Source of the DNA: Candidatus Electrothrix sp. GW3-4
GTDB taxonomy: Bacteria > Desulfobacterota > Desulfobulbia > Desulfobulbales > Desulfobulbaceae
Direction of reading: 5' to 3'
Length of the DNA: 32,000 nt
NCBI RefSeq assembly: GCF_037902255.1
Contig: NZ_CP147990.1
Location: 210,001 to 242,000 of the forward strand
Position 1 is the first letter of the stretch. Each line of letters starts with the position of its first letter. A model generated the notes under the pieces. It did not search any database, was not told where the DNA came from, and saw only the letters and a list, made by a program, of their open reading frames with translations. Positions 7,611 to 32,000 of the stretch are shown here, piece after piece. A program made the position numbers and the translations under genes.

Positions 7611-8028
7611 CTCTTCGCCTTTTGTCGTCAGGTAGCTGGTTCACCTGCTTGCCAATGGCTCCTTCGCCTTGGGCGATGTTCATGTCTCCATTGCCGCTGT
7701 GGGCGTAGACATCGCCATGCACATCACCGCCTACCGCCACACCGCCCTGTACCGCCTGCGCTCCTTTAAGCTTTTCCTTCAATTGTCTCGCCGCAGTCAG
7801 TACCTCCTCATCCTTATCCGCCCCGACCTTTGCCAACTCCTCGGCAACAACGGCCTTCCGCGCAGGAGAGTCCGGGTTATTCTCCAACTGCTCCACTGCT
7901 TCGGCTAGTGCGCTCTTTTCCCCGAACTTGCCTTGCAGCAGTTCCTTCAACTTGGTGTAACCATGCTTTACGCCTTCCAGGCCCAGGCTACCCACCGCAG
8001 ACGCAATTGCGGAAGTGATAAAGTCCAT
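7591..8028 (-). CDS. Small protein (145 aa): a ~90-aa helical N-domain (Bell-like, putative effector) plus a C-terminal motif shared with the TPR protein
   Basis: I preferred ATG 8028 over the ORF-track start at 8262 because GGAGGA lies 6 nt upstream of it. The C-terminal sequence is GGVAVGGDVHGDVYAHSGNGDMNIAQGEGAIGKQVN. The stop overlaps the TPR gene start by 20 nt. Confidence 0.75.
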   Translation of the reverse strand: MDFITSAIASAVGSLGLEGVKHGYTKLKELLQGKFGEKSALAEAVEQLENNPDSPARKAVVAEELAKVGADKDEEVLTAARQLKEKLKGAQAVQGGVAVGGDVHGDVYAHSGNGDMNIAQGEGAIGKQVNQLPDDKRRRDEEEEK

Positions 8029-8248
8029 GTTCGTTCCTCCATTCATTTGAATTCTATCGGCAATATCCCCCTCATCATAACCCGACATCCTATCTCCTGC
8101 ACCGGAAATATTCCCCCGAACAAGCCAAAAACATCCTTGAGGAAAACCTCCCGCAACTGTATGATGGCTTGAACGGAACATGGTGCAGTTGCACAGGAAG
8201 AGGCATGCACTGCTCCAGCTCATTGACCCCTTGCCCCTGAGTGACGCA

Positions 8249-8803
8249 ATGAAAAAAGACAAGAAGAGGAGATCAAAGCCGGTTGAACTGCTGAGAGCGG
8301 TCTACAGTGCCGCAATGCTCTTCTGCATCCCCGGACTTATTATTACCTTTATCTCACCGACGTTCATCATCAAGTTTGACCGCATCAATCAGGAGCGTGT
8401 CGATGCGACCGTCACCCGACAGCTCCTCTTTCTTATTCCGGCCTTTAAGGAGACAGCTGTGGATATCCGGGACATGAAGTCGGAAACGATGCACGGCAAG
8501 GCCATCCGTGAAGGCAGCAGAACAACAGGCAGGATTGTCGGCAATGCAGAGGACGAAGGTGTCCTTCAGCTGAACAGTCGGTCAGGGGCACCTGTATCCC
8601 TGTCTGTCTCTCCGGTAAACCTTGATGATATTGAGGAAGAGATCAGTTCCTTTATCAATGAAAGCAAGGAGCCGTCCCAGCACTTGTGGGTGACGTCCAA
8701 CTGGAAGTTCGGTGTGCTGTTGCCCGGTGCAATCCTGCTGTTCAGTCTGATAGTCTTTATTATGGCCGTCCGGTCGATCCTTACCGGCAAGACGTTGGAG
8801 TGA
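8249..8803 (+). CDS. Bitopic membrane protein (N- and C-terminal TM helices, central soluble domain), unknown family; paralogue of 29145-29675
   Basis: I chose the start at ATG 8249 (MKKDKKRRSK), which parallels MKKGSKKESR of the paralogue. The TM segments are AAMLFCIPGLIITFISPTFII and FGVLLPGAILLFSLIVFIMAV. Confidence 0.65.
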   Translation: MKKDKKRRSKPVELLRAVYSAAMLFCIPGLIITFISPTFIIKFDRINQERVDATVTRQLLFLIPAFKETAVDIRDMKSETMHGKAIREGSRTTGRIVGNAEDEGVLQLNSRSGAPVSLSVSPVNLDDIEEEISSFINESKEPSQHLWVTSNWKFGVLLPGAILLFSLIVFIMAVRSILTGKTLE

Positions 8804-16846: not shown

Positions 16847-16996
16847 GGCAAAAGGAATATTCTGCAACGAGGAGATGATGCCCGATTCAGAATCATACGT
16901 CCTGTACGTTTTTTTGGGTTGAGGGTGTATTGTCTGAAAAGTATCACTTCAAGACTTAGCAGCTTTTGACAACTTTTGACAACAAAGGAGTTCACA

Positions 16997-18190
16997 ATGA
17001 AATGCACCATAAAATTTGGCTTCATTATTGTCTTATTCATTTTCTTCTCTAGCATTGTTGTATTAAAAGCATCCCACGCCGCCGAGCCTACGATATTGGC
17101 TGCCTATCAGGCTTGGTTCGGTTTACCCTCCCATCTGCCAGTCTATAATTCCTGTGATCCCGACTTGCTGGCTCAGCAAATTCAAAAAGCCAAAGACATG
17201 GGCATTGATGGCTTTGTCGTGGACTGGTACGGTCCTCAGGCCGGGGTGATCAATGATACAGACAGGGAATTTATAGATCAGGCAACTGCCGTACTTATCG
17301 AGCAGGCAGAGGCAGATAATTTTAAGATTGCCTTGATGTATGATGAAGGGGCCGTTGCCCAGGCTGGCTTGGATGATGAACGCTCTATGGGCCAGGTGCA
17401 GGCTGATCTGGTCTATGCCAAGAAGTATTTTTCTTCCCCTGCTTATCTACACATTCATGGCTATCCTGCTCTGTTTGTCTTTTCCTATGATGAGGTTGAC
17501 CAATATCTTGACTGGGAAACCCTGCGTAGCGAGTTGGGCACGCAACTTACCCTGATCGATAATGATCCCAACCCTGCTGCGCAAGAACGTGATGATATAT
17601 TTGATGGCTTCTATGCCTGGGTGCAGGCCGACTGGCGTCCCAAAGGGAAAGACTGGGGCAAAGGCTATCTGGATTGGTTTTATGGGCAGATGAAAGAGGG
17701 GCGTTATGCCGATAAAATCATGATTGGGGGTGTTTGGCCGGGGTTTGATGACCTGCTTGCCTTCTGGGGTAAGCGTCGTTTTATTCCCCGCCAAAACGGA
17801 CAGGTTTATGCCAAGACCATGGACCTTGCCCAGCAGCATGACGCTGCCATTATTCTCTTAGAAACCTGGAATGATTTTGAGGAAGGGACAGATATCGAAT
17901 TCGGCAGAGACATGATTGTTGATATGGAAGCAGATTATCCAGACTTGCTCGTCAGGTCTTCACCGATTACAGTTGAGTGGGACCCTGCGAGGGGAGAGCT
18001 TGCCGTGCAGGTTTATAAAAATGGAAGATTGATCTATGATCAGCGAAAATCATCAGGCGTTTCCCTCGCCCTTAAACCCAAAGGTGAATATGAGTTGAAG
18101 CTGTGGACATCTGGAACAGATACCCTCTCTCAATGGATAAAAATTCGCAGGAAGGATTTGGAAAAAAGACGTAACAGGACAAGAGGCTGA
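16997..18190 (+). CDS. Secreted putative glycoside hydrolase (GH99/GH71-like TIM-barrel family, tentative)
   Basis: AAGGAG SD lies 6 nt before ATG 16997. The signal peptide is MKCTIKFGFIIVLFIFFSSIVVLKASHA. The motifs GIDGFVVDWYGP and LLETWNDFEEGTDIE resemble endo-mannosidase-like hydrolases. The product call is tentative. Confidence 0.6.
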   Translation: MKCTIKFGFIIVLFIFFSSIVVLKASHAAEPTILAAYQAWFGLPSHLPVYNSCDPDLLAQQIQKAKDMGIDGFVVDWYGPQAGVINDTDREFIDQATAVLIEQAEADNFKIALMYDEGAVAQAGLDDERSMGQVQADLVYAKKYFSSPAYLHIHGYPALFVFSYDEVDQYLDWETLRSELGTQLTLIDNDPNPAAQERDDIFDGFYAWVQADWRPKGKDWGKGYLDWFYGQMKEGRYADKIMIGGVWPGFDDLLAFWGKRRFIPRQNGQVYAKTMDLAQQHDAAIILLETWNDFEEGTDIEFGRDMIVDMEADYPDLLVRSSPITVEWDPARGELAVQVYKNGRLIYDQRKSSGVSLALKPKGEYELKLWTSGTDTLSQWIKIRRKDLEKRRNRTRG

Positions 18191-18557: not shown

Positions 18558-19778
18558 ATGCATCTCAAACTCGCCTACCGAAATATTACGGCCTATAAAA
18601 AACGCAGCATCATCACCCTGCTGCTGACCACGGTCACCACTGCCCTGCTGATCTTTGCTACGGCCTGGATGGATGGTTCCCACAAGACGATCCTCAATAA
18701 TGCCGTAGAGGTCTATCCGGGCTATCTCCAGATAACCGGCAAGGACTTCCGGGATACGCCCAGTTTTGATAATCTGATCTTTGATGCCCAGGCGGTCCAT
18801 GATAAGCTTGCCCAACAAGAGGGCATTGCCGCCTTTGGGGCCCGCTTTGAGTCCTTTGTCCTTTATTCAGTAGGAGACAAGGCCGTGGGCGGTATGCTCA
18901 CCGCTATTGAACCGGAAAAGGAGGCCCAGCTCTCCCGCTTGGCTGATTCCCTGGTTAAGGGAGCGTATCTCCAGGCTGGAGATGGCAATAAGGTCTATAT
19001 CGGCAAGGAACTGGCCCGTCGCCTTAAGGTGGATGTGGGCGACACAGTCACCTTTGTCGGCAGCGGGGCTGATTGGTCCTTTGCTGCGGATAACCTCCAG
19101 ATCAAGGGGATCTTTCAGACAGGCCTGTTTGAATTCGATGCCTCTGCTGCCTTTCTGGCCAAGGGCTATTTTGATCAGATCATGGCCTCGACCAATTATG
19201 CCACCCATTTTATTGTTCTTCCCAAGCAAACGGACCAGGCGGAGCCGTTAGCTGCCAGCATCGGCGCAGAGCTGGGGCCGGAATATGAGGTCGCGAGCTG
19301 GAATCAGATCATGGCGGCCTTAGTCACGGCTATGGAGCTGGACTCGGTCTTCGGCTATATCACCCTGGGGATCATCTTTACGGTGATCTTCTTCGTTATC
19401 ATGATCTATACCTTCCTGGCCGTGTTTGCCCGCATTCGTGAGCTGGGGATCTTGCGAGCTATTGGCACCAAACCCAGTGAGATTTTTATCATGCTTCTCC
19501 TGGAGTCCTGCCTGCTGGCCCTGGTCAGTGTACTGCTCGGTGGCTTGATCGGAGGGGGCATAGCCTGGTATTTTGAGGTCAACCCAATCGTCTTTGCCAG
19601 CTTTGAAGAGCAGTTCAAACAGTACGGCATGGCTTCCTCTGCTATGCCCACTGCCTTTGCGCCCCTGGTTATCCTTCGGGACATGGTCGTGATCTTTGTC
19701 CTTTCGGTGCTTTCCACCCTCTATCCCATTCTCAAAGCCAACCGGATGCAACCTGTGGAGGCCATGCACCATGTTTAG
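18558..19778 (+). CDS. ABC transporter permease, FtsX/MacB/LolCE-type
   Basis: The N-terminus is LKLAYRNITAYKKRSIITLL. There is a large periplasmic loop and a C-terminal FtsX-type 3-TM bundle containing RELGILRAIGTKPSEIF. Confidence 0.9.
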   Translation: MHLKLAYRNITAYKKRSIITLLLTTVTTALLIFATAWMDGSHKTILNNAVEVYPGYLQITGKDFRDTPSFDNLIFDAQAVHDKLAQQEGIAAFGARFESFVLYSVGDKAVGGMLTAIEPEKEAQLSRLADSLVKGAYLQAGDGNKVYIGKELARRLKVDVGDTVTFVGSGADWSFAADNLQIKGIFQTGLFEFDASAAFLAKGYFDQIMASTNYATHFIVLPKQTDQAEPLAASIGAELGPEYEVASWNQIMAALVTAMELDSVFGYITLGIIFTVIFFVIMIYTFLAVFARIRELGILRAIGTKPSEIFIMLLLESCLLALVSVLLGGLIGGGIAWYFEVNPIVFASFEEQFKQYGMASSAMPTAFAPLVILRDMVVIFVLSVLSTLYPILKANRMQPVEAMHHV

Positions 19779-20994
19779 CCTGATCCTGAAAATCGCCCGT
19801 GCCTCTCTGGCCCGTCGTGGCTTGCGTTCTCTCTTGGTTGTTCTGATGATTGCCATCAGTCTCTGGGGCCTACTGCTCATGGAAGGGGTCTATGAAGGCA
19901 TGATAGAGCAGATGATTAATAATGCCATCCGCAGCGACAGCGGCCATCTCTCCTTTTTTGCCAAGGGGTACCGCTCAGATCCGGATCTTGCTCTCTTGGT
20001 AGATAAGGTCCCGGCCATCCGGGCTGCCCTGGAGCAGGATCAGCGGCTGCGAAGCTTTGCCCTACGCCTCAAGCAAGATGGCCTGGCAGCAACGGCCCAT
20101 GCCTCACGGGGGGCGGCGATTATCGGTATGGATCTGGAAAAGGAAGAACAGCACGGCCGATTGGCGGAATATCTTTACAAGGGAGAATTCAGCTTTGGTA
20201 AACAAGATAAGGGGATTATTCTTGGCTTTAAGCTGGCTGATACCCTGCGGGTGCGTATTGGCAGCAAGATCATTCTCTCGGCCCAGGACCTGCATGCGGA
20301 GGTCGCCTCTGCCGCCTTCCGGGTGACCGGTATCCTCAAGACCAATAATATGGGCCTGGATGAACGGGCGGTCTTTATTGATCTGGACAGGATGCGCAAG
20401 ATGCTGAGTGTACCGGAAGGCGTAAGTCAGGTTGCGGTGATTGTTCATGACCAGGATCAGCTTGCTGAGGTGCAGGAAGACCTGCATAGCCAATTTCCTG
20501 ATCTGGATATCCTGCGCTGGGACGAGCTCTATCCGGCCCTGATGCAGTCCAAGGTGATCATGAACGGCTTTAATATGGTGATCAGCGGGATGATCTTCTG
20601 TGTGGCAGCCCTGGGGATTTTTGGCGTAATGCTGGTCTCCGTCCTGGAGAGGATTAGGGAATTCGGGATCATGCTGGCCATCGGGACCCGCTTCGGGCTG
20701 ATCCGCAATATCGTTCTGGCTGAGTCTTTCTTTCTCGGCCTGATCGGCTTTCTCTTTGGCAGCCTGATCGGGGGACTCTCTCTCTATTATTTTAAGATTT
20801 ATGGCCTGGATCTCAGCGCCTTCAGCGATGCCTTTGATGAATTTGGCATGGATGCCGTGACCTATGCCATCATCCGTCCGAGTTATTTTCTCACTGCCTT
20901 TGTTGCGGTGCTGCTGGCCACCTTTTTCAGTGTGCTGATTCCTTTGCGGGTATTGAAGAAGTCCAATCCTATTGAGGCGATTAATAAGGTGTGA
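19771..20994 (+). CDS. ABC transporter permease, FtsX/MacB/LolCE-type (second copy)
   Basis: I chose ATG 19771, which overlaps the upstream stop by 8 nt. The sequence has MFSLILKIARASLARRGLRS... and REFGIMLAIGTRFGLI. Confidence 0.9.
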   Translation: MFSLILKIARASLARRGLRSLLVVLMIAISLWGLLLMEGVYEGMIEQMINNAIRSDSGHLSFFAKGYRSDPDLALLVDKVPAIRAALEQDQRLRSFALRLKQDGLAATAHASRGAAIIGMDLEKEEQHGRLAEYLYKGEFSFGKQDKGIILGFKLADTLRVRIGSKIILSAQDLHAEVASAAFRVTGILKTNNMGLDERAVFIDLDRMRKMLSVPEGVSQVAVIVHDQDQLAEVQEDLHSQFPDLDILRWDELYPALMQSKVIMNGFNMVISGMIFCVAALGIFGVMLVSVLERIREFGIMLAIGTRFGLIRNIVLAESFFLGLIGFLFGSLIGGLSLYYFKIYGLDLSAFSDAFDEFGMDAVTYAIIRPSYFLTAFVAVLLATFFSVLIPLRVLKKSNPIEAINKV

Positions 20995-21057: not shown

Positions 21058-21591
21058 ATGCCGAATACAGCCTATTTGGAGCATTATACAGCGGATGATT
21101 ATGCCCGGTGGGAGGGTGATTGGGAATTGATCTACGGTGCGCCGTATGCCATGTCGCCGTCCCCTTCCATCTCTCACCAGCGCGTGGCGAAGCGACTCCT
21201 TGTGCTGCTGGATGCACAGTTGCAGGACTGCCCTTTATGTGAGGTGCTCAGCGAGGTGGACTGGCATTGTGCCGATGACATCATCGTTCGACCGGATATT
21301 GTGGCGGTTTGTGAGGTTGAAGGGGAACAGCTTGTTCAGACTCCTGAGCTGATTATTGAAGTTGTTTCTCCGTCCACGGTTAAGCGGGATGAGCAGATAA
21401 AATTTGCGTTGTATCAGGGGAAAGGGGTGAAAAACTATATCTTGGTTTATCCGCAGGAGCGGAAGATCGTCATCTATCAGTTAACTGGTGGGCGGTATCG
21501 CAAGGTTGGGGACGATAAAATGGAGTCTTTTGATTTCAGGGTGAAAGATTGTGCTGTTAGGCTTGAATTTGAGCGGGTTTGGCGGGTGTGA
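21058..21591 (+). CDS. Uma2-family (DUF820) putative endonuclease
   Basis: AGGAGA SD is present. YTADDYARWEGDWELIYG..., PDIVAV and PELIIEVVSPST..D...K...Y match the Uma2 PD-(D/E)XK pattern. Confidence 0.85.
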   Translation: MPNTAYLEHYTADDYARWEGDWELIYGAPYAMSPSPSISHQRVAKRLLVLLDAQLQDCPLCEVLSEVDWHCADDIIVRPDIVAVCEVEGEQLVQTPELIIEVVSPSTVKRDEQIKFALYQGKGVKNYILVYPQERKIVIYQLTGGRYRKVGDDKMESFDFRVKDCAVRLEFERVWRV

Positions 21592-21720
21592 AATAGAGTG
21601 AGCGTGACCTCAAACTCTGTCCCTGTAAAGTTACTACAAACCATGAGTCATGCTAACAACTTGTTAAATTTTAAGAATCAGCATTATTTTTTATTAGAAG
21701 CAAAACAGTAGGTATGCATA

Positions 21721-22788
21721 ATGACCAAAAGATATATCACTGCTCAGAATGTTTCTGTAGGTAAACAAATTGCCCCCATAAAAATGGTTTATCTTTTTTC
21801 TGCTGATGAATATGAAGAATTTATTGAAGAATGGATAGATACAAAGAAAGATAAATATATAAGGACTGAAAAAAATGCAGGTGCTGGTGATATGGGTAGA
21901 GATATTATTGCTTATATTGAAGACCCTAAAAGTAATCCAGAAAAATACAAATGGGATTGTTATCAGTGCAAACATTACAGTAACCCCCTAGTACCAAGTA
22001 ATATTTGGGTAGAATTCGGAAAAATTCTTTTCTATACATTTAAAAAAGAATATCCAGTCCCTGAAAAATATTACTTTGTCCCCCCGAAAGGTGTTGGTAC
22101 GGCATTATCAGCCCTTCTTAGCAATACATCAAAACTAAAAGTAGAATTGCAAAAAAATTGGGATAAACATTGTAAATACAAAATTACAAAAACTAAAGAT
22201 ATTAAATTGTCTGGAGAATTTTTAAATTATTTTAACAAATTTGATTTTTCAATTTTTGATAAAATTCCCCCAAAGAAAGTAATTGAACAGCATGCAAAAC
22301 ATGAAAATCACCTGTTACGGTTTGGGGGTGGTCTCCCCGAAAGAAAGGTTATCGAAGAAATTCCCAAAGTTGATACAGATAAGGAATTAAGATATATCAA
22401 ACAGCTAACTTTGGCCTACAATTCTGATAGTCAAGATGACATTAAAACAGTTAACGATATAGAAATATATAACAAATATAAGCAACATTTTCACAGGGCA
22501 AGAAAGAGCTTCTATCATGCGGAAGAATTAAGAATTTTCACAAGAGATAACTTGCCAGCTCAAGTTTTTGATGATTTTCAAGAGGAAGTCTTTCAAAGTG
22601 TTGCAAATACGGCAGAAGATGACTTCGAAAATGCCTTTACCAAGGTTAAAACAGTTGAAAACCAAGCAGTAAAAACTCCCATAGAGTCGAACCCACTTAG
22701 AGAAGTATGCAACACTATAGACAAAAAAGGTATATGTCATCAATTGGTTAATAAAGAAATAATTTCATGGATCAACGATAATGAATAA
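21721..22788 (+). CDS. lmuA: Lamassu/ABC-3C effector (LmuA-like): N-terminal Mrr-like PD-(D/E)XK nuclease domain plus a helical C-terminal domain
   Basis: The gene is AT-rich. EEFIEEWI...GAGDMGRDIIAY...KWDCYQCKHY fits the E..D..QxK restriction-endonuclease-fold motif order. It is the first gene of a three-gene overlapping operon that ends in an SMC-like ATPase. Confidence 0.7.
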   Translation: MTKRYITAQNVSVGKQIAPIKMVYLFSADEYEEFIEEWIDTKKDKYIRTEKNAGAGDMGRDIIAYIEDPKSNPEKYKWDCYQCKHYSNPLVPSNIWVEFGKILFYTFKKEYPVPEKYYFVPPKGVGTALSALLSNTSKLKVELQKNWDKHCKYKITKTKDIKLSGEFLNYFNKFDFSIFDKIPPKKVIEQHAKHENHLLRFGGGLPERKVIEEIPKVDTDKELRYIKQLTLAYNSDSQDDIKTVNDIEIYNKYKQHFHRARKSFYHAEELRIFTRDNLPAQVFDDFQEEVFQSVANTAEDDFENAFTKVKTVENQAVKTPIESNPLREVCNTIDKKGICHQLVNKEIISWINDNE

Positions 22789-23266
22789 TAAAATCCATAT
22801 TTTTAATAACGAAATTGAAATAGGGCTAAGAATATTAATAATTTTAAATACCGTTTACCCGCGATCTTTAGATGTTGAACTCCTTAATTACTATGATTAT
22901 TTTTCACTTCATACAGCTGACATTGGAGGTGAAGAAAGTCTTCACCCTCCAGTGCCAAATCGTTTTGGAGAATTATCAGTAAAACGAGAAATACTACAAA
23001 GGAGCTTGGAATTTTTACTTCTTAAAGGATTAATAAATCAATCTTTCACTGAAAATGGGGTAGAATTTATAGCAAGTGAAACAACTTCACCATTTATTGA
23101 TACATTGAACGAAGAATACACATTAAATTTATTAGAAAAAGCAAAATGGGTTTCTGATAAATTCAAGAATTATTCCCCCGAAAAGATAAGAAAGTATATC
23201 AATGTTAATCAAGAAAGATGGGGAAGTGAAATCTCATTTTGTAGCATAGGATGCACAAATGAATGA
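22781..23266 (+). CDS. lmuC: Lamassu/ABC-3C middle component (LmuC-like)
   Basis: The gene overlaps both neighbours by 8 nt (ATGAATAA and ATGAATGA). The 161-aa product contains LDVELLNYYDYFSLHTADIGGEESLHPPVPNRFGELSVKREIL, typical of the middle-component family as I recall it. Confidence 0.65.
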   Translation: MNNKIHIFNNEIEIGLRILIILNTVYPRSLDVELLNYYDYFSLHTADIGGEESLHPPVPNRFGELSVKREILQRSLEFLLLKGLINQSFTENGVEFIASETTSPFIDTLNEEYTLNLLEKAKWVSDKFKNYSPEKIRKYINVNQERWGSEISFCSIGCTNE

Positions 23267-25067
23267 GGTAGGGTTTTTAATAAAAAGATTACGAATAGTT
23301 GGAAAAGGTGTTGAAAGTGCCGAAGTACCATTTACCACAGGGTTAAATGTGATAATCGGTCCATCAGATACAGGAAAGACTTACATCTTCCAATGCTTGG
23401 ATTATATGCTCGGGGCAAGTAAAAAGCCGAAGGGAATTCCTGAAGCAAAAAAATATACTAGCTGTCTACTAGAAATAAAATCATATCAAGGTGACTATTA
23501 CACATTAGAACGAAGCCTTAAGGGTGGAGCATTTAATCTTTATGAAAGTAAAATTGATATTCGTGGCACAGCTAAACCACTAAAAGAGGACAATAAAGGA
23601 AGTAATGAGAGTATTTCAGACTTTTTGTTAAAATTATGCAATATTGATAATAAAAAAGTACGAAAAAATGCAAACGGACTAACGAGAAATTTATATTTTC
23701 AAGATTTAAAACGATATTGTCTAATTGATGAAGAAAGAATTATTGAAGAAAATACACCTGTTCGCAGTAAACAATACACAGAAAAAACATTTGGAGAAAA
23801 TGTTTTTAAATTTTTACTAACAGGTCAGGATGACAGTAGTATTGTTTCACTTTTAACTAAAGATGAAGTAACAAATAAAAAAGGTAAACTGGAATTACTA
23901 GAAGAAATTATTACAGCACTGAAATCAGACCTAAAAGGACAAACAAGCAAGGGTAAACTGGAAGAGCAAATTAAAAAAATAGATGATGCAATTCTTTCAT
24001 TTAAAAAAGATTATTCTTTAACTAAAGATATTTTCAATCGCTACGAAACGGAAAAGAACCAACTTTACAATCAGTTATTGCAAAAAGAATCCCGGATCAA
24101 TACGTTAATTGAGCTTCTCAAGAGGAGCGTGATTCTGGAAAGACAATATGAAAGTGATATTGCTAGACTGAAGGCAACATTTGAAGCGAGTGAATCTATT
24201 GAGAATATAGAAATATTCAATTGTCCTGTATGTAAAAGTGATTTGACGAATCAAGCCACTGTTGATACGGAGTCCATAAGACTGGCTATCAAAAAAGAAA
24301 TTGAGAAAACGATATTATTAAAAAAAGAATTAAAAGAGTCTGTAAAGCTATTTGATAATGAAAGACTATTGTTGATTCACGAGAAGAATAAACTTCAGAG
24401 GAGTTATGACGAATTAATTCGAACTATCGAAAGTGAAGCAAGTGGAAATATCTCTAAAATAGAAAAACAAATAAATTATTTTCTCATAAAAAAGGTTGAA
24501 CTATCAAAAATACAGTCACTATTTATTGAATTAGATGATTTTGAGGATAAAAAGAAAAAGATTGAAGCTATTATTCGAAATAATAAAGAAAAAGGATGTG
24601 AGAACAATTATGAAAAAATTTCAACATCAATTTTGCAGCCATTCACTGAATTAATGTACTCAACCCTCAAAGCCATCAAGTTCGAGAATCTCGGCAAGAG
24701 TGTTGGGTTTTCAGAAGATGATTTGGATTTTGTAATAGCAGGAAAAAACAGAAAAGATTACGGAAAAGGGTACCGTGCTATTCTATACGCTATCTTTACG
24801 ATTACACTTTTAGAATTCCTAAAAAACAAACCATACAAAATAGGTTTCATCCTCATTGATTCACCATTAAATCCATACAAACCCGATGAATCGACAGAAG
24901 GCAAAATATCAAGAAATTTAGCCAACAATTGCTACAAATATTTACATGAAAGCACGAACGATCAACAGGTTATTATTATAGAAAATACAGAACCTCCAAA
25001 ATGCCTTGAGGAAGAGATTAATTTTATTAAATTTAGCAAAGAAAATGGCTTTATACCTAAACAATAG
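23259..25067 (+). CDS. lmuB: Lamassu/ABC-3C SMC/Rad50-like ABC ATPase (LmuB-like, DUF3732-type)
   Basis: Walker A is GLNVIIGPSDTGKTYIFQCLDYMLG. There is a long Lys/Glu-rich coiled-coil insert with CPVCKS (a zinc-hook-like CxxC). The C-terminus has GFILIDSPL (Walker B) and QVIIIENTEP. Confidence 0.8.
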   Translation: MNEVGFLIKRLRIVGKGVESAEVPFTTGLNVIIGPSDTGKTYIFQCLDYMLGASKKPKGIPEAKKYTSCLLEIKSYQGDYYTLERSLKGGAFNLYESKIDIRGTAKPLKEDNKGSNESISDFLLKLCNIDNKKVRKNANGLTRNLYFQDLKRYCLIDEERIIEENTPVRSKQYTEKTFGENVFKFLLTGQDDSSIVSLLTKDEVTNKKGKLELLEEIITALKSDLKGQTSKGKLEEQIKKIDDAILSFKKDYSLTKDIFNRYETEKNQLYNQLLQKESRINTLIELLKRSVILERQYESDIARLKATFEASESIENIEIFNCPVCKSDLTNQATVDTESIRLAIKKEIEKTILLKKELKESVKLFDNERLLLIHEKNKLQRSYDELIRTIESEASGNISKIEKQINYFLIKKVELSKIQSLFIELDDFEDKKKKIEAIIRNNKEKGCENNYEKISTSILQPFTELMYSTLKAIKFENLGKSVGFSEDDLDFVIAGKNRKDYGKGYRAILYAIFTITLLEFLKNKPYKIGFILIDSPLNPYKPDESTEGKISRNLANNCYKYLHESTNDQQVIIIENTEPPKCLEEEINFIKFSKENGFIPKQ

Positions 25068-25156
25068 AAGAGTGCTGAATGAATACGTATTTTTAAATCT
25101 GTCTATTGCCGCTTCAATCGCAACTATTCTCCGACAGAAACACAATCGTACTTGCA

Positions 25157-25342
25157 ATGAAAAATAACCACAATGCAAGTATGGCAAATTCCGGCATACT
25201 TGAAATAGCTAAAAAAGCTATCGGCAATGCTTTACTGCACCACAAAGCAATTGGTAACGAAATTGTGTTCTGGAAAGACGGCAAGATCGTTCGTGAAAAA
25301 CTAACAGCAGAGACACAGACACCGAAAATTCCCCAAAGCTAA
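25157..25342 (+). CDS. Small hypothetical protein (61 aa)
   Basis: I preferred ATG 25157 over TTG 25106. The gene ends 3 nt before the next gene, so it is possibly co-transcribed. No family was recognised. Confidence 0.4.
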   Translation: MKNNHNASMANSGILEIAKKAIGNALLHHKAIGNEIVFWKDGKIVREKLTAETQTPKIPQS

Positions 25343-25345
25343 ACA

Positions 25346-26899
25346 ATGCTCAAACCCCTACCAACCAGCATCCAGACATTCTGCGATCTTATCAACGGCG
25401 GCTACCTCTACATTGATAAGACGCAGTATCTCTACGAACTGGTCCGCTACCCCAAGGGTGTCTATTTTCTCGCCAGACCGCGCCGTTTCGGCAAGAGCCT
25501 GCTGATTTCCACCCTGGACGAGATTTTCCAAGGCAATAAAGAACTGTTCAAAGGGCTGTGGCTTTATAACAGTCCCTATCAATGGCAGCAACATCCAGTC
25601 ATTCGGATTGATTTCAGTCGTCATCGCATTCGGAATGAAGCAGACTTGGAAGTACGGATTCATCGCCACCTGAGTCTTATCGCCCGGCAATATAACATCA
25701 ATCTGCCGGACGCTCCTTTTGACATCCGGTTTGAAGAGTTGATTTTATCGCTGGGAACGGAAAAACAGGTTGTTATCCTTATTGACGAATACGACAAACC
25801 GTTGATCGACAACTTGGAAAGAATAGAAGATGCCCAAGCGATTCAACAGGTTCTGAGGGAGTTCTATACGGTTATAAAGTCTATGGATCAGTATATCCGT
25901 TTCGTCTTTATCACGGGGGTCAGCAGATTCAGCCGGGTCGGGGTCTTCTCGTCCATGAATAACCTCCTTGATCTGACAATGCACCCTGATTTTGCCGGAT
26001 TACTGGGATTGACCGAAAATGAAATTAGACAGTCTTTTCAAGGCTACCTGACGAAATTTGCCGAAGAAAAAAATATTTCCGAGGTTGCATTGCTGGATCA
26101 GATGCGCCGATGGTATGACGGATTTCGTTTTGTCGACGGCAGCGAGCGGCTCTACAATCCTTTTTCCACCATGCATTTTTTTCATAACCGACGCTTTGCC
26201 AATTATTGGTTTGAAACCGGTACCCCCTCTTTTTTGATCAAGCTCATCAAAGAACAGAATTTCGATGTCACCCGGCTCGAACACCTTGAACTCAGAGAAA
26301 CCGCCTTCAGCACCTATGAGCTGGAAAACTTGGCCGTCATCCCGCTGCTGGTCCAGACCGGCTATCTGACTATTAAGGAGTATGATCAGGAGAACCGTAA
26401 ATATACCTTGGGGCATCCCAATTATGAAGTCAAAGACGCCTTTTCCGTCCATCTGCTGGGGGCCTTCAGCTCGGTGAACTACGGGCTCGGCGAGTCGTAT
26501 CTCTGGCAATTGATCGACGCTTTGCAGGCTGGAGAGTTAGAAGAATTCTTCACCATCCTGGATGTCTTCTTCGCCAACATCGACTATCAGCTTCATCTGA
26601 AATATGAAAAATATTATCAGACCATTTTTTACCTGATTTTCCTGCTGCTCGGCTTACGGGTCGAGGCCGAGGTGGAGACCAACAAGGGGAGGATTGATGC
26701 TGTGGTGGAGTTGAAGGAAGCCGTCTTTCTTTTTGAATTCAAGCTGGACGGCAGCGTAGACGAGGCCCTGCGTCAGATCATAACTCGGGAGTATTATAAG
26801 AAATATATTTTAAAGGGGAAGCCGGTGACCCTGGTGGGTGTTAACTTCGACAGCGAAAAACGTGGGGTAGCTGAGTGGCGGGGTGAGCTTGTTGCGTAG
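25346..26899 (+). CDS. AAA-ATPase-like protein with a C-terminal PD-(D/E)XK nuclease domain (PDDEXK_9 type)
   Basis: The N-terminus FCDLINGGYLYIDKTQYLYELV....YFLARPRRFGKSLLISTL is characteristic of the family. The C-terminus has GRIDAVVEL...FLFEFKLDGS (D..E.K). Confidence 0.88.
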   Translation: MLKPLPTSIQTFCDLINGGYLYIDKTQYLYELVRYPKGVYFLARPRRFGKSLLISTLDEIFQGNKELFKGLWLYNSPYQWQQHPVIRIDFSRHRIRNEADLEVRIHRHLSLIARQYNINLPDAPFDIRFEELILSLGTEKQVVILIDEYDKPLIDNLERIEDAQAIQQVLREFYTVIKSMDQYIRFVFITGVSRFSRVGVFSSMNNLLDLTMHPDFAGLLGLTENEIRQSFQGYLTKFAEEKNISEVALLDQMRRWYDGFRFVDGSERLYNPFSTMHFFHNRRFANYWFETGTPSFLIKLIKEQNFDVTRLEHLELRETAFSTYELENLAVIPLLVQTGYLTIKEYDQENRKYTLGHPNYEVKDAFSVHLLGAFSSVNYGLGESYLWQLIDALQAGELEEFFTILDVFFANIDYQLHLKYEKYYQTIFYLIFLLLGLRVEAEVETNKGRIDAVVELKEAVFLFEFKLDGSVDEALRQIITREYYKKYILKGKPVTLVGVNFDSEKRGVAEWRGELVA

Positions 26900-27099: not shown

Positions 27100-27233
27100 A
27101 GAATATTCTTCCCTATACACGGTGTTTCGCTGCCGGTGCCATGATTTTTGTGGTTGTGAAAGATGAGTTTTTTCTTTTTTGCTGTCAGCCCTGCATAGGA
27201 GCGGCGGTATATTTTGTTGCAGATAATCTTTAA
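27100..27233 (+). pseudogene. Possible fragment of a ZIP-family (ZupT/GufA-like) metal transporter
   Basis: CFAAGAMIFVVVKDE resembles the conserved GFAAGAMxFVVxxEl motif of the last ZIP TM helices. No other ZIP motifs flank it. Confidence 0.25.
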
Positions 27234-27249
27234 AATCATGAGGAATTAT

Positions 27250-27795
27250 ATGAATCATTGGCCAAGACAATTGTTCTTTTCTGTCACCCTATCTGTAATG
27301 CTGCTTTGCTTTTCCTCTGCGCAGGCGGTAGAGAACCGTGTTGTTGTGGTGCCATTACTGGGAGGAAACAGCAGTGCTGCCGCTACCGAGAAAGAGGTAT
27401 ATATTCCGGCCCATATGTTTCGACCTGTCCTGTCAATGACCGCATGGAGTTTCGAGGAGGAAGGGGCAATTATCAATCCGAATGATGCCAGTTACTGGAT
27501 TGCGCCGATTTTACTCCCGGTGGGCGCCACGATTATCTCTTTAGAGCTTGTGTTTAAAAATGCTGTGGCAAATAGCGGGACGAGCTCGGTGATGCTGCAT
27601 CTTCTTAACCAGGCAAATGCACAGGGTCTCGATTTTATTTCTCAAAACTCGTTTGTAACTACAGCCGGGGTTCAAACAGTGAAAAGAGAGGATATTAACT
27701 GGGTAATCTCAGAAGCCTACCATGCCTCTGTGAGAGTTTATTTAGGAAACACCAACCGGTGGCTGCTTGGAGTAAAAGTGGTCTATTCCGATTAA
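27250..27795 (+). CDS. Secreted hypothetical protein (181 aa)
   Basis: GAGGAA lies 4 nt before ATG 27250. The signal peptide is MNHWPRQLFFSVTLSVMLLCFSSAQA. No family was recognised. Confidence 0.65.
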   Translation: MNHWPRQLFFSVTLSVMLLCFSSAQAVENRVVVVPLLGGNSSAAATEKEVYIPAHMFRPVLSMTAWSFEEEGAIINPNDASYWIAPILLPVGATIISLELVFKNAVANSGTSSVMLHLLNQANAQGLDFISQNSFVTTAGVQTVKREDINWVISEAYHASVRVYLGNTNRWLLGVKVVYSD

Positions 27796-27864
27796 GGGAT
27801 ACAACTCCCTTAGGTTCCAAAAAAGATTTCCGGCCGGAGTTGACTCCACGCTTTTTCAGGCGCC

Positions 27865-29052
27865 TCACAGCCATTTTTTCTTGCGAAAATACCAGAATAA
27901 CCCTGCCGGGATTGCCAAGAAAAGAGCCCACAGGATCGGGTAGGCCCATTTCCAGTGCAGTTCAGGCATGTATTCGAAATTCATGCCATAGATCCCGGCT
28001 AAAAAGGTCAGGGGAATAAAGACTGAGGCAAAGAGGGTGAGGACTTTCATGACCTCGTTCATTCTATTGCTGAGGCCGGAGATATAGAGCGAGGACAGGC
28101 CTGCCAGCAGCTCCCGGTAAGACTCCACTGCCTCGCTGAGGCGCAGGGCATGGTCAGAGACATCCCTGAAATAGATCTTGGTCCGCTCATGAATCAGCTT
28201 TGAATCACTGCGCAGGATAGCGCCAGTGAGTTCTTTAATCGGCACGACATGCTTTCTAATAAAGATTGCCTCCCGCTTGAGCTGCTGGATGGTCACTGGC
28301 ATATCCTTGGTGGGCTCAGAAAAAAGGAGCCGGTCTTCCAGCAGGGTGATGGTGTCATCAACGGTATCGGTCAGCAGGAAGAGCTGATCAACCAGGATGT
28401 CGAGCAAGGCATAGGCCAGATAATCCGCACCCATGCTTCGGAGCTTTCCTCTTCGCATGTTGATGCGCCGAATCAGTGGCTGAAAGAGATCATCGGTCCG
28501 TTCCCTGAAGACAACCACGGCATTGGCCAGAATCAGCAGGCTGATCTGCTCATGTTCCACCACCAGGTCACCGTCTTCCTCATCATTGAAGGTATTGAGG
28601 TTGCTGGTGACGATAAAGAGATAGGAGTCGTAGATCTCCAGCTTGGGACGTTGATGGGTGGTGAGGATATCTTCGATAACAAGCGGGTGAATGCCTGCCA
28701 TTGTCCCTATCTTTTCGATTAGATCAACGTCGGCCAGCCCTTCCACCGTAATCCAGGTCACGCTGTTATTGTCATCAAAGCCATCAAGCTGCTCTGGCAT
28801 CCCGATCCGTTCCTGCTCAACTGTATCTCTATTATAGGTCACCTTGCTGATAACCGTTTCCAGCTGGCAAAAATCACCCACATGAACAATGGAGCCAGGG
28901 GGCAGGCCTGTCTTTTCTGAGGGATTGGTCAGGGATTCTTTGGGATGGCGCTTCATTTTGTTGCGTTTTTTCTGCGGGTATGTAGGGAATTGCTGAATCT
29001 TCTTACGTGATTTTCTTGATTTTTCCTTGGGCTTTTTTCCTGATTTTATCAT
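27865..29052 (-). CDS. corA: CorA-family magnesium/cobalt transporter
   Basis: The C-terminal YGMNFEYMPE (GMN signature) lies between two TM helices. The start is ambiguous: ATG 29052 gives a Lys-rich 32-aa extension, and ATG 28956 (MKRHPKE...GLPPGSIVHVGD) is an alternative. Confidence 0.9.
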   Translation of the reverse strand: MIKSGKKPKEKSRKSRKKIQQFPTYPQKKRNKMKRHPKESLTNPSEKTGLPPGSIVHVGDFCQLETVISKVTYNRDTVEQERIGMPEQLDGFDDNNSVTWITVEGLADVDLIEKIGTMAGIHPLVIEDILTTHQRPKLEIYDSYLFIVTSNLNTFNDEEDGDLVVEHEQISLLILANAVVVFRERTDDLFQPLIRRINMRRGKLRSMGADYLAYALLDILVDQLFLLTDTVDDTITLLEDRLLFSEPTKDMPVTIQQLKREAIFIRKHVVPIKELTGAILRSDSKLIHERTKIYFRDVSDHALRLSEAVESYRELLAGLSSLYISGLSNRMNEVMKVLTLFASVFIPLTFLAGIYGMNFEYMPELHWKWAYPILWALFLAIPAGLFWYFRKKKWL

Positions 29053-30943: not shown

Positions 30944-31067
30944 GGGAAAAAAGGGTGGGGCTGGGTGGAGCTAGGAATAGTCTGGGTCAAGGCAGGCGGA
31001 TTCTGAGTTAAAGGCAGGAGCGGTCTGGGTAAAAACAGAACATTTTTCTGCTAACCTTGATGAAATG

Positions 31068-31832
31068 CTAATCTTTGTTGTCTTTATCTTCTGTTAAAAG
31101 CGTCTTGATTTGATCTGCAATAGGGGTGAAATTATAAATTTCTTCTTTCTCGTTAGTTTCTACTTTTCTTAAAAGATTAAGAGATAAAAGCCGATTGATT
31201 TTATCTTTCATTTTTTCATCTCGATAGACATATAGTGAGCTTCTTGTTACGAGAGAGCAATAAGGTTCAGGTGCAGAGATTACTGTTGAAGCAGTAAGCA
31301 TGTGCCTTTTTCCATCACTACTTACTTTTGATGGGCTTGGTTTAGGCTGTTTTTCTTCAGTAAAAATTCTTATATCAGTAAATGTTTCTTCCTTATGTGT
31401 TCGTTCAACGATGAACTTAGCTTCTTTTGCTGAAATATCGCGAAGGGTTCTTGTTAAAACTTCAGCTTCATATTCTAATTCAGAAGCCGTTTCTGGCTTG
31501 AATGAGTTCCTAATAGCCCTTTTGAGATACTCAATTTTTTCTTCATCAACTGTACTCAGCATACAATTTATCGCATCTCCGATAATTTTATACTGAGCAT
31601 CAGTTAGTTCATTGATCCTCAATCCTTGTTTGTTGATAGATTCCTCTAGATCTTTGATAGCAGCCTCTATCCTTTTAACATGTCTCCCATGAGCAAGAGT
31701 GCCTGTCAATAAAGGAAGAAATGAAGCTATTCCTCCACTAAGTACACCTATTCCTGTTGTTACCAAGGTTGTCGATAAAGAACCAGCAACTGATTCTATT
31801 TTACTTTTTTCTTCCATCTCTTTTTTTCTCAA
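31068..31832 (-). CDS. Hypothetical protein (254 aa) in an AT-rich patch, with an N-terminal Gly-rich hydrophobic segment
   Basis: The ORF has AT-rich codon usage unlike its flanks. The N-terminal segment is TTLVTTGIGVLSGGIASFLPLLTGTL. No family was recognised. Confidence 0.65.
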   Translation of the reverse strand: MRKKEMEEKSKIESVAGSLSTTLVTTGIGVLSGGIASFLPLLTGTLAHGRHVKRIEAAIKDLEESINKQGLRINELTDAQYKIIGDAINCMLSTVDEEKIEYLKRAIRNSFKPETASELEYEAEVLTRTLRDISAKEAKFIVERTHKEETFTDIRIFTEEKQPKPSPSKVSSDGKRHMLTASTVISAPEPYCSLVTRSSLYVYRDEKMKDKINRLLSLNLLRKVETNEKEEIYNFTPIADQIKTLLTEDKDNKD

Positions 31833-31852
31833 TTCTCCCCTACGCTTTTATG

Positions 31853-31999
31853 TTAAAGCGTCTTCCGATATTTTAAAATCAAACAGGTAGGATAGATCAT
31901 CCCTGAAATAACCTGCTCGGTAGCCGGAAAATCCGTTTTTTCTTCCAGCAGCTCCAGCCGGGCAGCCTGTAGTACCGTCGGATCAAGGTACTCCATCAT
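31853..31999 (-). CDS. Possible small or partial ORF at the window edge (MMEYLDPTVLQAARLELLEEKTDFPATEQVISGMI...)
   Basis: The frame is open to the window end, so it may continue upstream beyond 32000. The last ~12 codons run into the AT-rich patch. Confidence 0.3.
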   Translation of the reverse strand: MMEYLDPTVLQAARLELLEEKTDFPATEQVISGMIYPTCLILKYRKTL

Positions 32000-32000
32000 C

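Follow-up and report, generated by a model that had tools for sequence, protein, structure and literature searches.

Lamassu systems with an Mrr-family effector have been described before. Lamassu-Mrr of Escherichia coli SE15 defends against phage through abortive infection; its ATPase site, its effector and LmuC are all required (10.1101/2022.05.11.491447). In the systems of Vibrio cholerae and Salmonella enterica, which are of the Cap4-CTD7-MC3 type, two folded LmuB subunits and LmuC sequester a monomeric LmuA's C-terminal domain (CTD). DNA ends are bound by the complex, engagement of the heads, which depends on ATP, sets LmuA free, and the freed protein assembles through its CTD into a tetramer whose paired nuclease domains cut DNA (10.1101/2025.03.14.643221; PMC12663957). 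The triggers of DdmABC are palindromic, hairpin-forming DNA and DNA damage (PMC11707656). Lamassu has been proposed to derive from SbcCD. A short LmuB has about 600 amino acids (aa), a Walker A motif Gx4GK[S/T], a Walker B motif hhhhD[Q/S/T/E] and up to two CxxC hooks, and the CTDs of short LmuA proteins are described as helical (PMC12663957). Here we describe an AT-rich operon of three genes, lmuA, lmuC and lmuB, which a cable bacterium, Candidatus Electrothrix sp. GW3-4, carries in its chromosome. The stretch analysed is 32 kb long and is called the window; positions without further indication are those of the window. The Lamassu family, the Lamassu-Mrr subtype, the ABC-three-component (ABC-3C) domain families and the general mechanism have all been published already. 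In the literature searched, no paper links Electrothrix to Lamassu.

We are confident that the operon is a short type II Lamassu of the Mrr-nuclease/CTD6/MC2 subfamily, intact and gained by horizontal transfer, and that it occupies a variable slot in Electrothrix. Its identity as a Lamassu is practically beyond doubt. All three proteins are matched almost from end to end by PADLOC models: LmuA by PDLC03852 (E 1.8e-107, aa 13-353, 336-position model), LmuC by PDLC03871 (1.1e-48, aa 5-151, 156-position model) and LmuB by PDLC03863 (2.9e-150, aa 6-600, 610-position model). Pfam identifies CTD6 (PF20282) in the first protein (7.3e-38) and MC2 (PF20288) in the second (6.2e-45, far above the 26.9-bit cutoff); the matches on LmuB are sub-threshold P-loop matches only. 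An earlier note on this stretch, made from its letters alone, had assigned the genes to the Lamassu/ABC-3C family and proposed profile searches for LmuB- and LmuC-type families; the assignment is borne out with strong profile support. Further PADLOC models for LmuA align to the C-terminal part alone (aa 213-355, 3.2e-29), which is direct evidence that effector N-domains are swapped on a common docking CTD, as the note had held for the family. The LmuA sequence is 100% identical to an 'ABC-three component system protein' which NCBI lists for Ca. Electrothrix sp. GW3-4, and LmuB of this genome is annotated there as hypothetical.

The operon is set apart by its base composition. In seven 500-bp intervals spanning 21501-25000 the G+C content (GC) is 0.29-0.35 with a mean of 0.317; the other 55 intervals of the 32-kb stretch have a mean of 0.510 (standard deviation 0.056), which gives z = -3.4 for the mean inside the island. 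The genes have a GC of 0.32 (lmuA), 0.30 (lmuC) and 0.31 (lmuB). At third codon positions (GC3) the values are 0.24, 0.20 and 0.25, respectively, versus 0.57-0.66 in the flanking host genes. GC thus falls from 0.51 to 0.32. The abrupt drop at about 21.6 kb and the recovery at about 25.1 kb were seen correctly in the earlier note, and the coordinates it gave for the three open reading frames (ORFs) are exact. So are the overlaps of 8 nt at the lmuA/lmuC and lmuC/lmuB junctions (ATGAATAA and ATGAATGA). Neither a frameshift nor an internal stop interrupts lmuA, lmuC or lmuB. The coordinates are collected in Table 1.

Table 1. Lamassu operon of Ca. Electrothrix sp. GW3-4 and features adjoining it in the window.
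Feature	Position	Strand	Description and evidence
lmuA, effector	21721..22788	+	355 aa; predicted N-terminal PD-(D/E)xK domain (Mrr-type), ~aa 1-210, and CTD6, aa 222-350
lmuC, middle component of MC2 type	22781..23266	+	161 aa; PADLOC LmuC and Pfam MC2
lmuB, short SMC/Rad50-like ABC ATPase, putative sensor	23259..25067	+	602 aa; PADLOC LmuB
AT-rich leader upstream of lmuA	21593..21720	+	Sequence; homology to the cassettes of relatives begins only at 21733-21752
Strain-variable segment (island)	21593..25345	.	blastn versus sister Electrothrix loci; from the conserved Uma2 stop to the conserved AAA-ATPase_like/PDDEXK_9 start
Uma2-family putative endonuclease gene, left flank	21058..21591	+	Pfam Uma2 1.7e-26; PADLOC candidate PDC-S03 4.6e-28; host-like GC
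AAA-ATPase_like + PDDEXK_9 gene, right flank	25346..26899	+	Pfam PF09820 5.6e-61, PF08011 7.5e-20
Orphan small gene WGN25_01065	25157..25342	+	61 aa from ATG; GC 0.41, between island and host

The ATPase LmuB carries a Walker A motif at aa 34-41 (GPSDTGKT, with the lysine K40), a single CxxC hook motif near the midpoint of the protein (CPVC, aa 322-325) and a Walker B motif at aa 530-535 (FILIDS, with the aspartate D534). Among 30 homologues, the most distant of them 31% identical, G34, S36, G39, K40, C322, P323, C325 and D534 are invariant, T41 is nearly invariant and S535 is at least 90% conserved. Judged from its sequence, the protein matches the published definition of a short LmuB in length, Walker A, Walker B and hook count, and CPVC is a putative zinc hook. 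All motifs named in the earlier note were found, i.e., GPSDTGKT, CPVC and FILIDS(P) in LmuB as well as GDMGRDIIAY...YQCKHY in LmuA. A profile of the LmuB family matches PDB 9hqu, entered as 'DUF3732 domain-containing protein', over nearly its full length (aa 16-543, E 3.2e-17); SMC and Rad50 heads come next. In a single-sequence alignment CPVC is aligned with CPMC of 9hqu. A literature search for PDB 9hqu yielded no paper.

The resemblance of LmuB to Rad50/SMC heads would also suit a housekeeping DNA-repair module of the SbcCD/Rad50 kind which is not an immune system. One LmuB homologue is labelled 'DNA repair exonuclease SbcCD ATPase subunit', and the proposed SbcCD ancestry of Lamassu (PMC12663957) points in the same direction. 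However, the partners in the operon are CTD6 and MC2 proteins, not SbcD, the composition is foreign, and the best matches are to defence-specific models with E down to 1e-150. Further, the three genes are absent from this site in three sister Electrothrix genomes, where Gabija or other genes are located. This pattern of presence and absence effectively refutes a repair module, to which we assign next to no probability.

For the effector LmuA, 40 homologues with 48-82% identity were collected and each was scanned separately against Pfam. Throughout this set E37, W38, G54, D57, G59, D61, W78, C80, Q82, C83, K84 and Y86 are invariant. AlphaFold2 models were obtained for the whole protein (predicted local distance difference test, pLDDT, 88.9) and for the N-domain alone (pLDDT 88.6; predicted template-modelling score, pTM, 0.84). 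In the N-domain model helices (H) and strands (E) follow each other in the order H28-40, E48-51, E62-65, E78-82, H92-107, E116-119, i.e., an alpha-beta-beta-beta-alpha-beta core. E37 is located in helix 28-40, D61 lies where the second strand (60-65) begins, Q82 where the third (78-82) ends, and K84 follows closely. In the model this arrangement of E37, D61, Q82 and K84 is the canonical layout of a PD-(D/E)xK nuclease. The C-terminal half is modelled as an all-helical bundle (aa 224-344).

A Foldseek search with whole LmuA returned solved LmuA chains first (9nxx_D at 2.9e-5; 9ny1, 9uxh), then Cap4, then MspJI and FokI. The fit was poor, with template-modelling (TM) scores of 0.25-0.30 and a root-mean-square deviation above 12 Å. 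The low TM is due to the two domains being hinged, and the N-domain was therefore modelled alone. Its neighbours are the N-terminal nuclease of Avs3 (8dgc, 4.1e-4, TM 0.46), LmuA 9nxx (3.3e-3), Cap4 6vm5 (3.5e-3) and MspJI. Searches of solved structures with LmuA, LmuC, an LmuA profile and an N-domain profile gave nothing meaningful by sequence. The matches they returned, to acetyl-CoA synthetase, butyryl-CoA dehydrogenase and gp6, were rejected as chance (E ~0.1-1). By model and fold comparison, then, the nuclease fold of the LmuA N-domain is established, as the earlier note had anticipated for gene 1.

Is this nuclease of the Mrr type, or is the effector better called Cap4/DUF4297-type and placed in the same effector class as that of V. 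cholerae DdmABC? The top structural neighbours of the N-domain, Avs3, LmuA 9nxx and Cap4 6vm5, favour the latter, and the window LmuA has no Mrr_cat match of its own. Yet fold matches are uninformative on this point and cannot separate Mrr from Cap4 because both nuclease families share one fold. At the level of the family the profiles speak for Mrr. Mrr_cat (PF04471) is matched by 31 of the 40 relatives at E <= 1, the best match reaching 7.4e-6. In two relatives the match exceeds the gathering score of 21 bits (25.9 and 26.5 bits) and covers the catalytic core, aa 24-92, against profile positions 3-67. Besides CTD6, Mrr_cat is the sole Pfam family which recurs across the set, and the DUF4297/Cap4 model matches neither the window LmuA nor any of its 40 homologues. 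The motif G-x-G-D-x-G-x-D ... Q-C-K-x-Y, which we take to be the Mrr_cat pattern, and the partner domains, CTD6/MC2 and not the CTD7/MC3 of DdmABC, likewise argue against a Cap4-type effector. We consider such an effector unlikely. The label 'Mrr-type', supported by the motif and by the family-level profile matches, is retained for the putative nuclease. The Mrr-like effector of the earlier note thus holds as regards family, motif and fold; the window protein searched alone gives no Mrr_cat match, and the best structural neighbours are of Cap4 type.

How might such a system operate? Two LmuB protomers and one LmuC would hold the CTD of one LmuA, and the nuclease would be kept monomeric and inactive. 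LmuB would detect aberrant DNA arising from phage or plasmid replication, e.g., free ends or hairpins formed by palindromes. ATP-dependent engagement of the LmuB heads would then release LmuA, and the freed protein would oligomerise via its CTD, bringing the PD-(D/E)xK domains together. Active LmuA would cut DNA without sequence discrimination and the infection would be stopped at the cell's cost (abortive infection). By analogy with the solved systems, we consider this detailed course, with the Mrr-type domain as a DNase, to be fairly probable for the window system. Our confidence is reduced because no CTD6/MC2 pair has been solved and its sequences show no detectable relation to LmuA or LmuC chains of known structure.

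The origin of the operon can be traced to some extent. The nearest LmuA relatives, 82%, 73% and 68% identical, are all metagenomic. Named relatives are 50-58% identical and belong mostly to low-GC Campylobacterota (Malaciobacter, Arcobacter, Sulfurimonas, Poseidonibacter) and to Flavobacteriia (Tenacibaculum, Flavobacterium). Two relatives have a matching operon in which a CTD6 gene of 355 or 350 aa, an MC2 gene of 161 aa and an ATPase gene of 601 or 609 aa overlap or abut. The 161-aa MC2 gene recurs at the equivalent position in the three retrieved loci L023, L024 and L025, and gene order and sizes of the operon are kept. LmuA, LmuC and LmuB are 73, 81 and 64% identical to their counterparts in L023, and 58, 58 and 46% to those in L025. 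As far as these sequences tell, the operon is inherited as a unit whose three proteins diverge in step. DNA homology to these relatives is confined to 21752-25058; what moved was the operon by itself.

The contigs of these relatives have a GC of 0.22-0.30 (0.30 in L023, 0.22-0.25 in Malaciobacter marinus). Since the DNA surrounding the operons of the relatives is natively low in GC, the AT-richness is the signature of a donor and not one of divergence. The earlier note had called the operon a divergent variant. This description has to be given up: existing Lamassu models describe the proteins very well, and the donor lineages are themselves natively low in GC. Its proposal of horizontal acquisition is upheld by the foreign GC3 (0.20-0.25 versus 0.57-0.66), by the low-GC relatives and by absence at the sister sites. 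In the metagenome contig SRR34318148_6704 (L023:5090-12788), which has a uniform GC of 0.30, the 73%-identical operon lies amid a resolvase gene, two genes for helix-turn-helix (HTH) regulators and an AlpA/HTH_17 gene. Such company suggests that a mobile element carried the operon in the donor lineage. More distant LmuB-MC2 operons (at most 32% identity) are found on 157 plasmids, mostly conjugative, and also in 4 phages.

The chromosomal site was examined by comparison of 22 related loci, retrieved with the adjacent permease as anchor. Both flanks are common to three other Electrothrix genomes with 85-93% DNA identity. According to blastn, identity of the left flank with Ca. E. laxa (L002) stops at 21592, right after the Uma2 stop codon; on the right it restarts at 25322 in Ca. 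E. laxa, at 25335 in Ca. E. aarhusensis (L011) and at 25349 in an uncultured Electrothrix (L003). The variable segment therefore extends from 21593 to about 25345. It comprises 3.7 kb of foreign DNA with the Lamassu operon and one 61-aa gene. Concerning the limits of the island, the earlier note was right with respect to composition and too narrow with respect to extent: synteny places them at 21593 and about 25321-25348 and adds the 61-aa gene, which it had not listed.

Different cargos occupy this slot. In the window it holds Uma2, Lamassu and the 61-aa gene. In Ca. E. laxa Uma2 is followed by a Gabija system of GC 0.37 which is complete, with GajA (548 aa, 1.6e-216) and GajB (401 aa, 9e-134), and is located in chromosome OW818652.1 (L002:12357-15198) exactly at the position of Lamassu. 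The uncultured Electrothrix (CBFDDU010000080.1, L003:2437-7062) is without Uma2 and has one protein of 1541 aa with AAA/nSTAND_NTPase5-like P-loop matches at aa 259-406, a host-like GC of 0.495 and no PADLOC match; from its position it is a candidate for an unclassified STAND-type defence gene. Ca. E. aarhusensis (MTKO01000059.1, L011:801-2309) has a decayed Uma2, now an ORF of 73 aa, and a lysine/glutamate-rich ORF of 420 aa (GC 0.41) of no known family, with no Pfam match and a marginal PADLOC match. Four Electrothrix genomes with shared flanks and four cargos, Gabija included, support the defence hotspot proposed in the earlier note. The three sister sites hold other cargo, and the same three genes with native composition were not encountered in these close relatives. 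An empty site, in which the permease is directly followed by the AAA-ATPase_like gene, does not occur among the 22 related loci; the comparison with related genomes, which had been suggested for defining such a site, delivered the limits of the segment. The arrangement is restricted to Electrothrix and is missing in more distant Desulfobulbaceae.

The flanking genes differ in their constancy. Uma2 is present in two of the four Electrothrix genomes, decayed in one and absent in one: the window protein is 94% identical to that of Ca. E. laxa, a stretch of 51 aa matches inside the 73-aa ORF of Ca. E. aarhusensis, and nothing matches in the uncultured Electrothrix. The AAA-ATPase_like/PDDEXK_9 protein is 93-95% identical in all three sister genomes, versus 87-91% for the neighbouring permeases. 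In Ca. E. laxa its gene is tandemly duplicated (L002:15198-18056); the first copy, an ORF of 403 aa, matches residues 1-380 of the 517-aa window protein and the second copy is complete. Only the AAA-ATPase_like gene, Uma2 and the permease pair are syntenic with Ca. E. laxa. The window genes for a glycosyl hydrolase, a 193-aa ORF and CorA (16976-18190, 27214-29052) have no counterparts within 10 kb on either side in Ca. E. laxa, which indicates that the wider neighbourhood is rearranged as well. A wider defence island was considered and rejected; the neighbours are MacB/FtsX-type permeases, CorA, a glycosyl hydrolase and UvrA, and the match of UvrA to the PADLOC model 'mad3' is generic ABC ATPase similarity. 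The site is a single slot with turnover of defence cargo and not a large island; the permease pair with Uma2 bounds it on the left and the AAA-ATPase_like/PDDEXK_9 gene on the right. As a long shot, the conserved AAA-ATPase_like/PDDEXK_9 gene or the sporadic Uma2 may assist in capturing or exchanging cassettes, which come without integrase, tRNA or repeats, and the slot would then be a nuclease-anchored exchange site of cable bacteria; separately, and with just as little weight, an Mrr-CTD6-MC2 complex with its invariant putative zinc hook may differ in assembly or activation from the solved Cap4-CTD7-MC3 complexes, which have no hook.

Several points weigh against the reading of the operon as an intact, acquired Lamassu of the Mrr-nuclease/CTD6/MC2 subfamily and the mechanism attached to it, and they are given here together. 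Concerning the effector, the window LmuA by itself has no Pfam match in its first 220 residues and no Mrr_cat match at E <= 1, and the TM-scores of the N-domain to known nucleases are modest (0.38-0.46). Concerning the mechanism, all structural and mechanistic studies deal with the Cap4-CTD7-MC3 subfamily; stoichiometry, release step and oligomer size are extrapolated, and for the CTD6/MC2 pair no solved chain is detectable by sequence. Concerning the arrival of the cassette, no integrase or recombinase was found among the window genes, no tRNA in the window and no credible direct or inverted repeats at the flanks, the longest candidates (12-25 nt, 73-100% identity) being typical of AT-rich DNA; none of these explains how it came. 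Concerning expression, genes with a GC3 of about 0.2 would have to be read in a host of 51% GC, and in a scan of 21593-21720 for sigma-70-like promoters no site passed, matches in the region being at chance level.

The low-GC segment could be the cargo of a larger integrative element, i.e., a prophage, a satellite or an integrative and conjugative element, with defence being incidental. The company of the L023 operon (resolvase, HTH and AlpA-type genes) and the related LmuB-MC2 operons on plasmids and in phages would agree with this. Yet the foreign segment measures just 3.7 kb, operon and one small gene, homology to the relatives ends at the edges of the operon, and integrase, recombinase, tRNA and terminal repeats are lacking in the window. 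We regard a larger element as very unlikely here. The acquired Lamassu cassette may, as is reasonable to suppose, have entered by homologous recombination through the conserved flanks.

The points on expression lead to another view of the operon: a recently landed passenger, intact in sequence and silent or non-functional on account of foreign codon usage and a foreign promoter. Besides the GC3 values, the leader of 128 bp without a promoter-like site would fit, as would the fast turnover of the slot. On the other hand, all three ORFs are full length against the profile models, none has a frameshift or internal stop, and the window copy keeps every residue which is invariant in the 30-40 homologues. 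A silent passenger is thus improbable in our estimation. For the operon as an intact Lamassu, the leader is presumed to hold a putative promoter and the ribosome-binding site. A terminator scan, like the promoter scan, gave matches at the level of shuffled sequence, and no Rfam family was matched in the island. ORFs on the minus strand at 21694-21975, 22528-22743 and 24942-25187 were rejected as genes; their translations, read from AT-rich antisense DNA, are of low complexity.

The small gene at the right end of the segment is a separate matter. Its 61-aa product has 13 homologues with 57-92% identity, none with a family assignment. In four of four contigs examined (L026-L029) the homologue shares 11 nt with the 3' end of a Zeta_toxin/AAA_33 gene (197-217 aa). 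Beside the 61-aa gene of the window neither a zeta-toxin gene nor a remnant of one was found. It is probably not part of Lamassu and perhaps the orphaned partner of a two-gene module left behind by an earlier occupant of the slot.

Elsewhere in the window, a second low-GC patch (31001-32000, 0.35-0.39) contains an ORF of 254 aa on the minus strand (31068-31832) which neither Pfam nor PADLOC matches; the patch may be a further acquired segment which runs off the window. At 5472-8262 (-) an overlapping pair encodes a protein of 223 aa, whose N-terminal domain is of the Het-E kind (8.7e-6), and then a protein of 712 aa with numerous TPR repeats (TPR_12 7.6e-94; PADLOC 'TPR' 1.7e-67). By its domains the pair resembles NLR-like conflict proteins. 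The second permease (19696-20994, +) has been called with a TTG start and an overlap of 83 nt with the upstream gene; orthologues begin with MFSLI..., and the true start is probably the ATG at 19771.

What does the locus add? For the biology of defence systems it adds little: Lamassu-Mrr is published and validated, the PADLOC models recognise the operon readily, and it is a well-supported, largely ordinary example of a known Lamassu type. Its value is modest and local. It points to a predicted anti-phage immunity in cable bacteria, which are filamentous and uncultured and about whose phages next to nothing is known, and to recent gene flow into them from marine bacteria of low GC. It further defines an Electrothrix slot with turnover of Lamassu and Gabija, in which two unclassified occupants are candidate new defence genes to be mined. 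Finally, the CTD6/MC2 subfamily has no solved structure, and a well-behaved member with an invariant putative zinc hook could be used for comparison with the hook-less complex of V. cholerae.

How, then, does the window system relate to those already described? By description, it shares with Lamassu-Mrr of E. coli O150:H5 SE15 (10.1101/2022.05.11.491447) the three genes lmuA, lmuC and lmuB and the SMC-like ATPase with a Walker A motif; its putative effector nuclease is, by the family-level evidence, likewise of the Mrr type. It differs in that its host is a cable bacterium and its own lineage is mainly that of Campylobacterota and Flavobacteriia. With DdmABC of V. cholerae and LmuACB of S. enterica (PDB 9ny5, 9nxx, 9uxh, 9hr5) it has in common the short type II architecture, an LmuB of about 600-660 aa with a divergent Walker B motif, and an LmuA which likewise combines a predicted PD-(D/E)xK nuclease with a helical CTD; LmuA chains of these systems are its best whole-protein structural matches. 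The logic of sequestration, release and oligomerisation is likely to be shared, too. In contrast, the domains are a putative Mrr_cat, CTD6 and MC2 in the window system and Cap4/DUF4297, CTD7 and MC3 in DdmABC/LmuACB. The sequences are marginally similar, and sequence searches found none of the solved LmuA or LmuC chains. Further, LmuB of V. cholerae is without a zinc hook (PMC12663957), whereas the window LmuB has an invariant CPxC.

To the ABC-3C systems the operon corresponds exactly: it combines an effector with CTD6 (PF20282), an MC2 protein (PF20288) and an ABC ATPase, without any architectural difference. ABC-3C and Lamassu are two names for one family. SbcCD/Rad50-Mre11 has a coiled-coil ABC ATPase with a CxxC hook which senses DNA ends and controls a nuclease, as is predicted for the window LmuB. 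Unlike it, the window operon lacks the SbcD/Mre11 phosphoesterase and has its putative PD-(D/E)xK nuclease on a separate, presumably releasable subunit; it is strain-variable and of foreign composition, not a core repair locus. Gabija of Ca. E. laxa, finally, is also an ATPase-nuclease defence system of low GC (0.37) and occupies the same slot between Uma2 and the AAA-ATPase_like gene, yet its components, an OLD-family ATPase-TOPRIM nuclease and a UvrD-like helicase, are unrelated to those of Lamassu.

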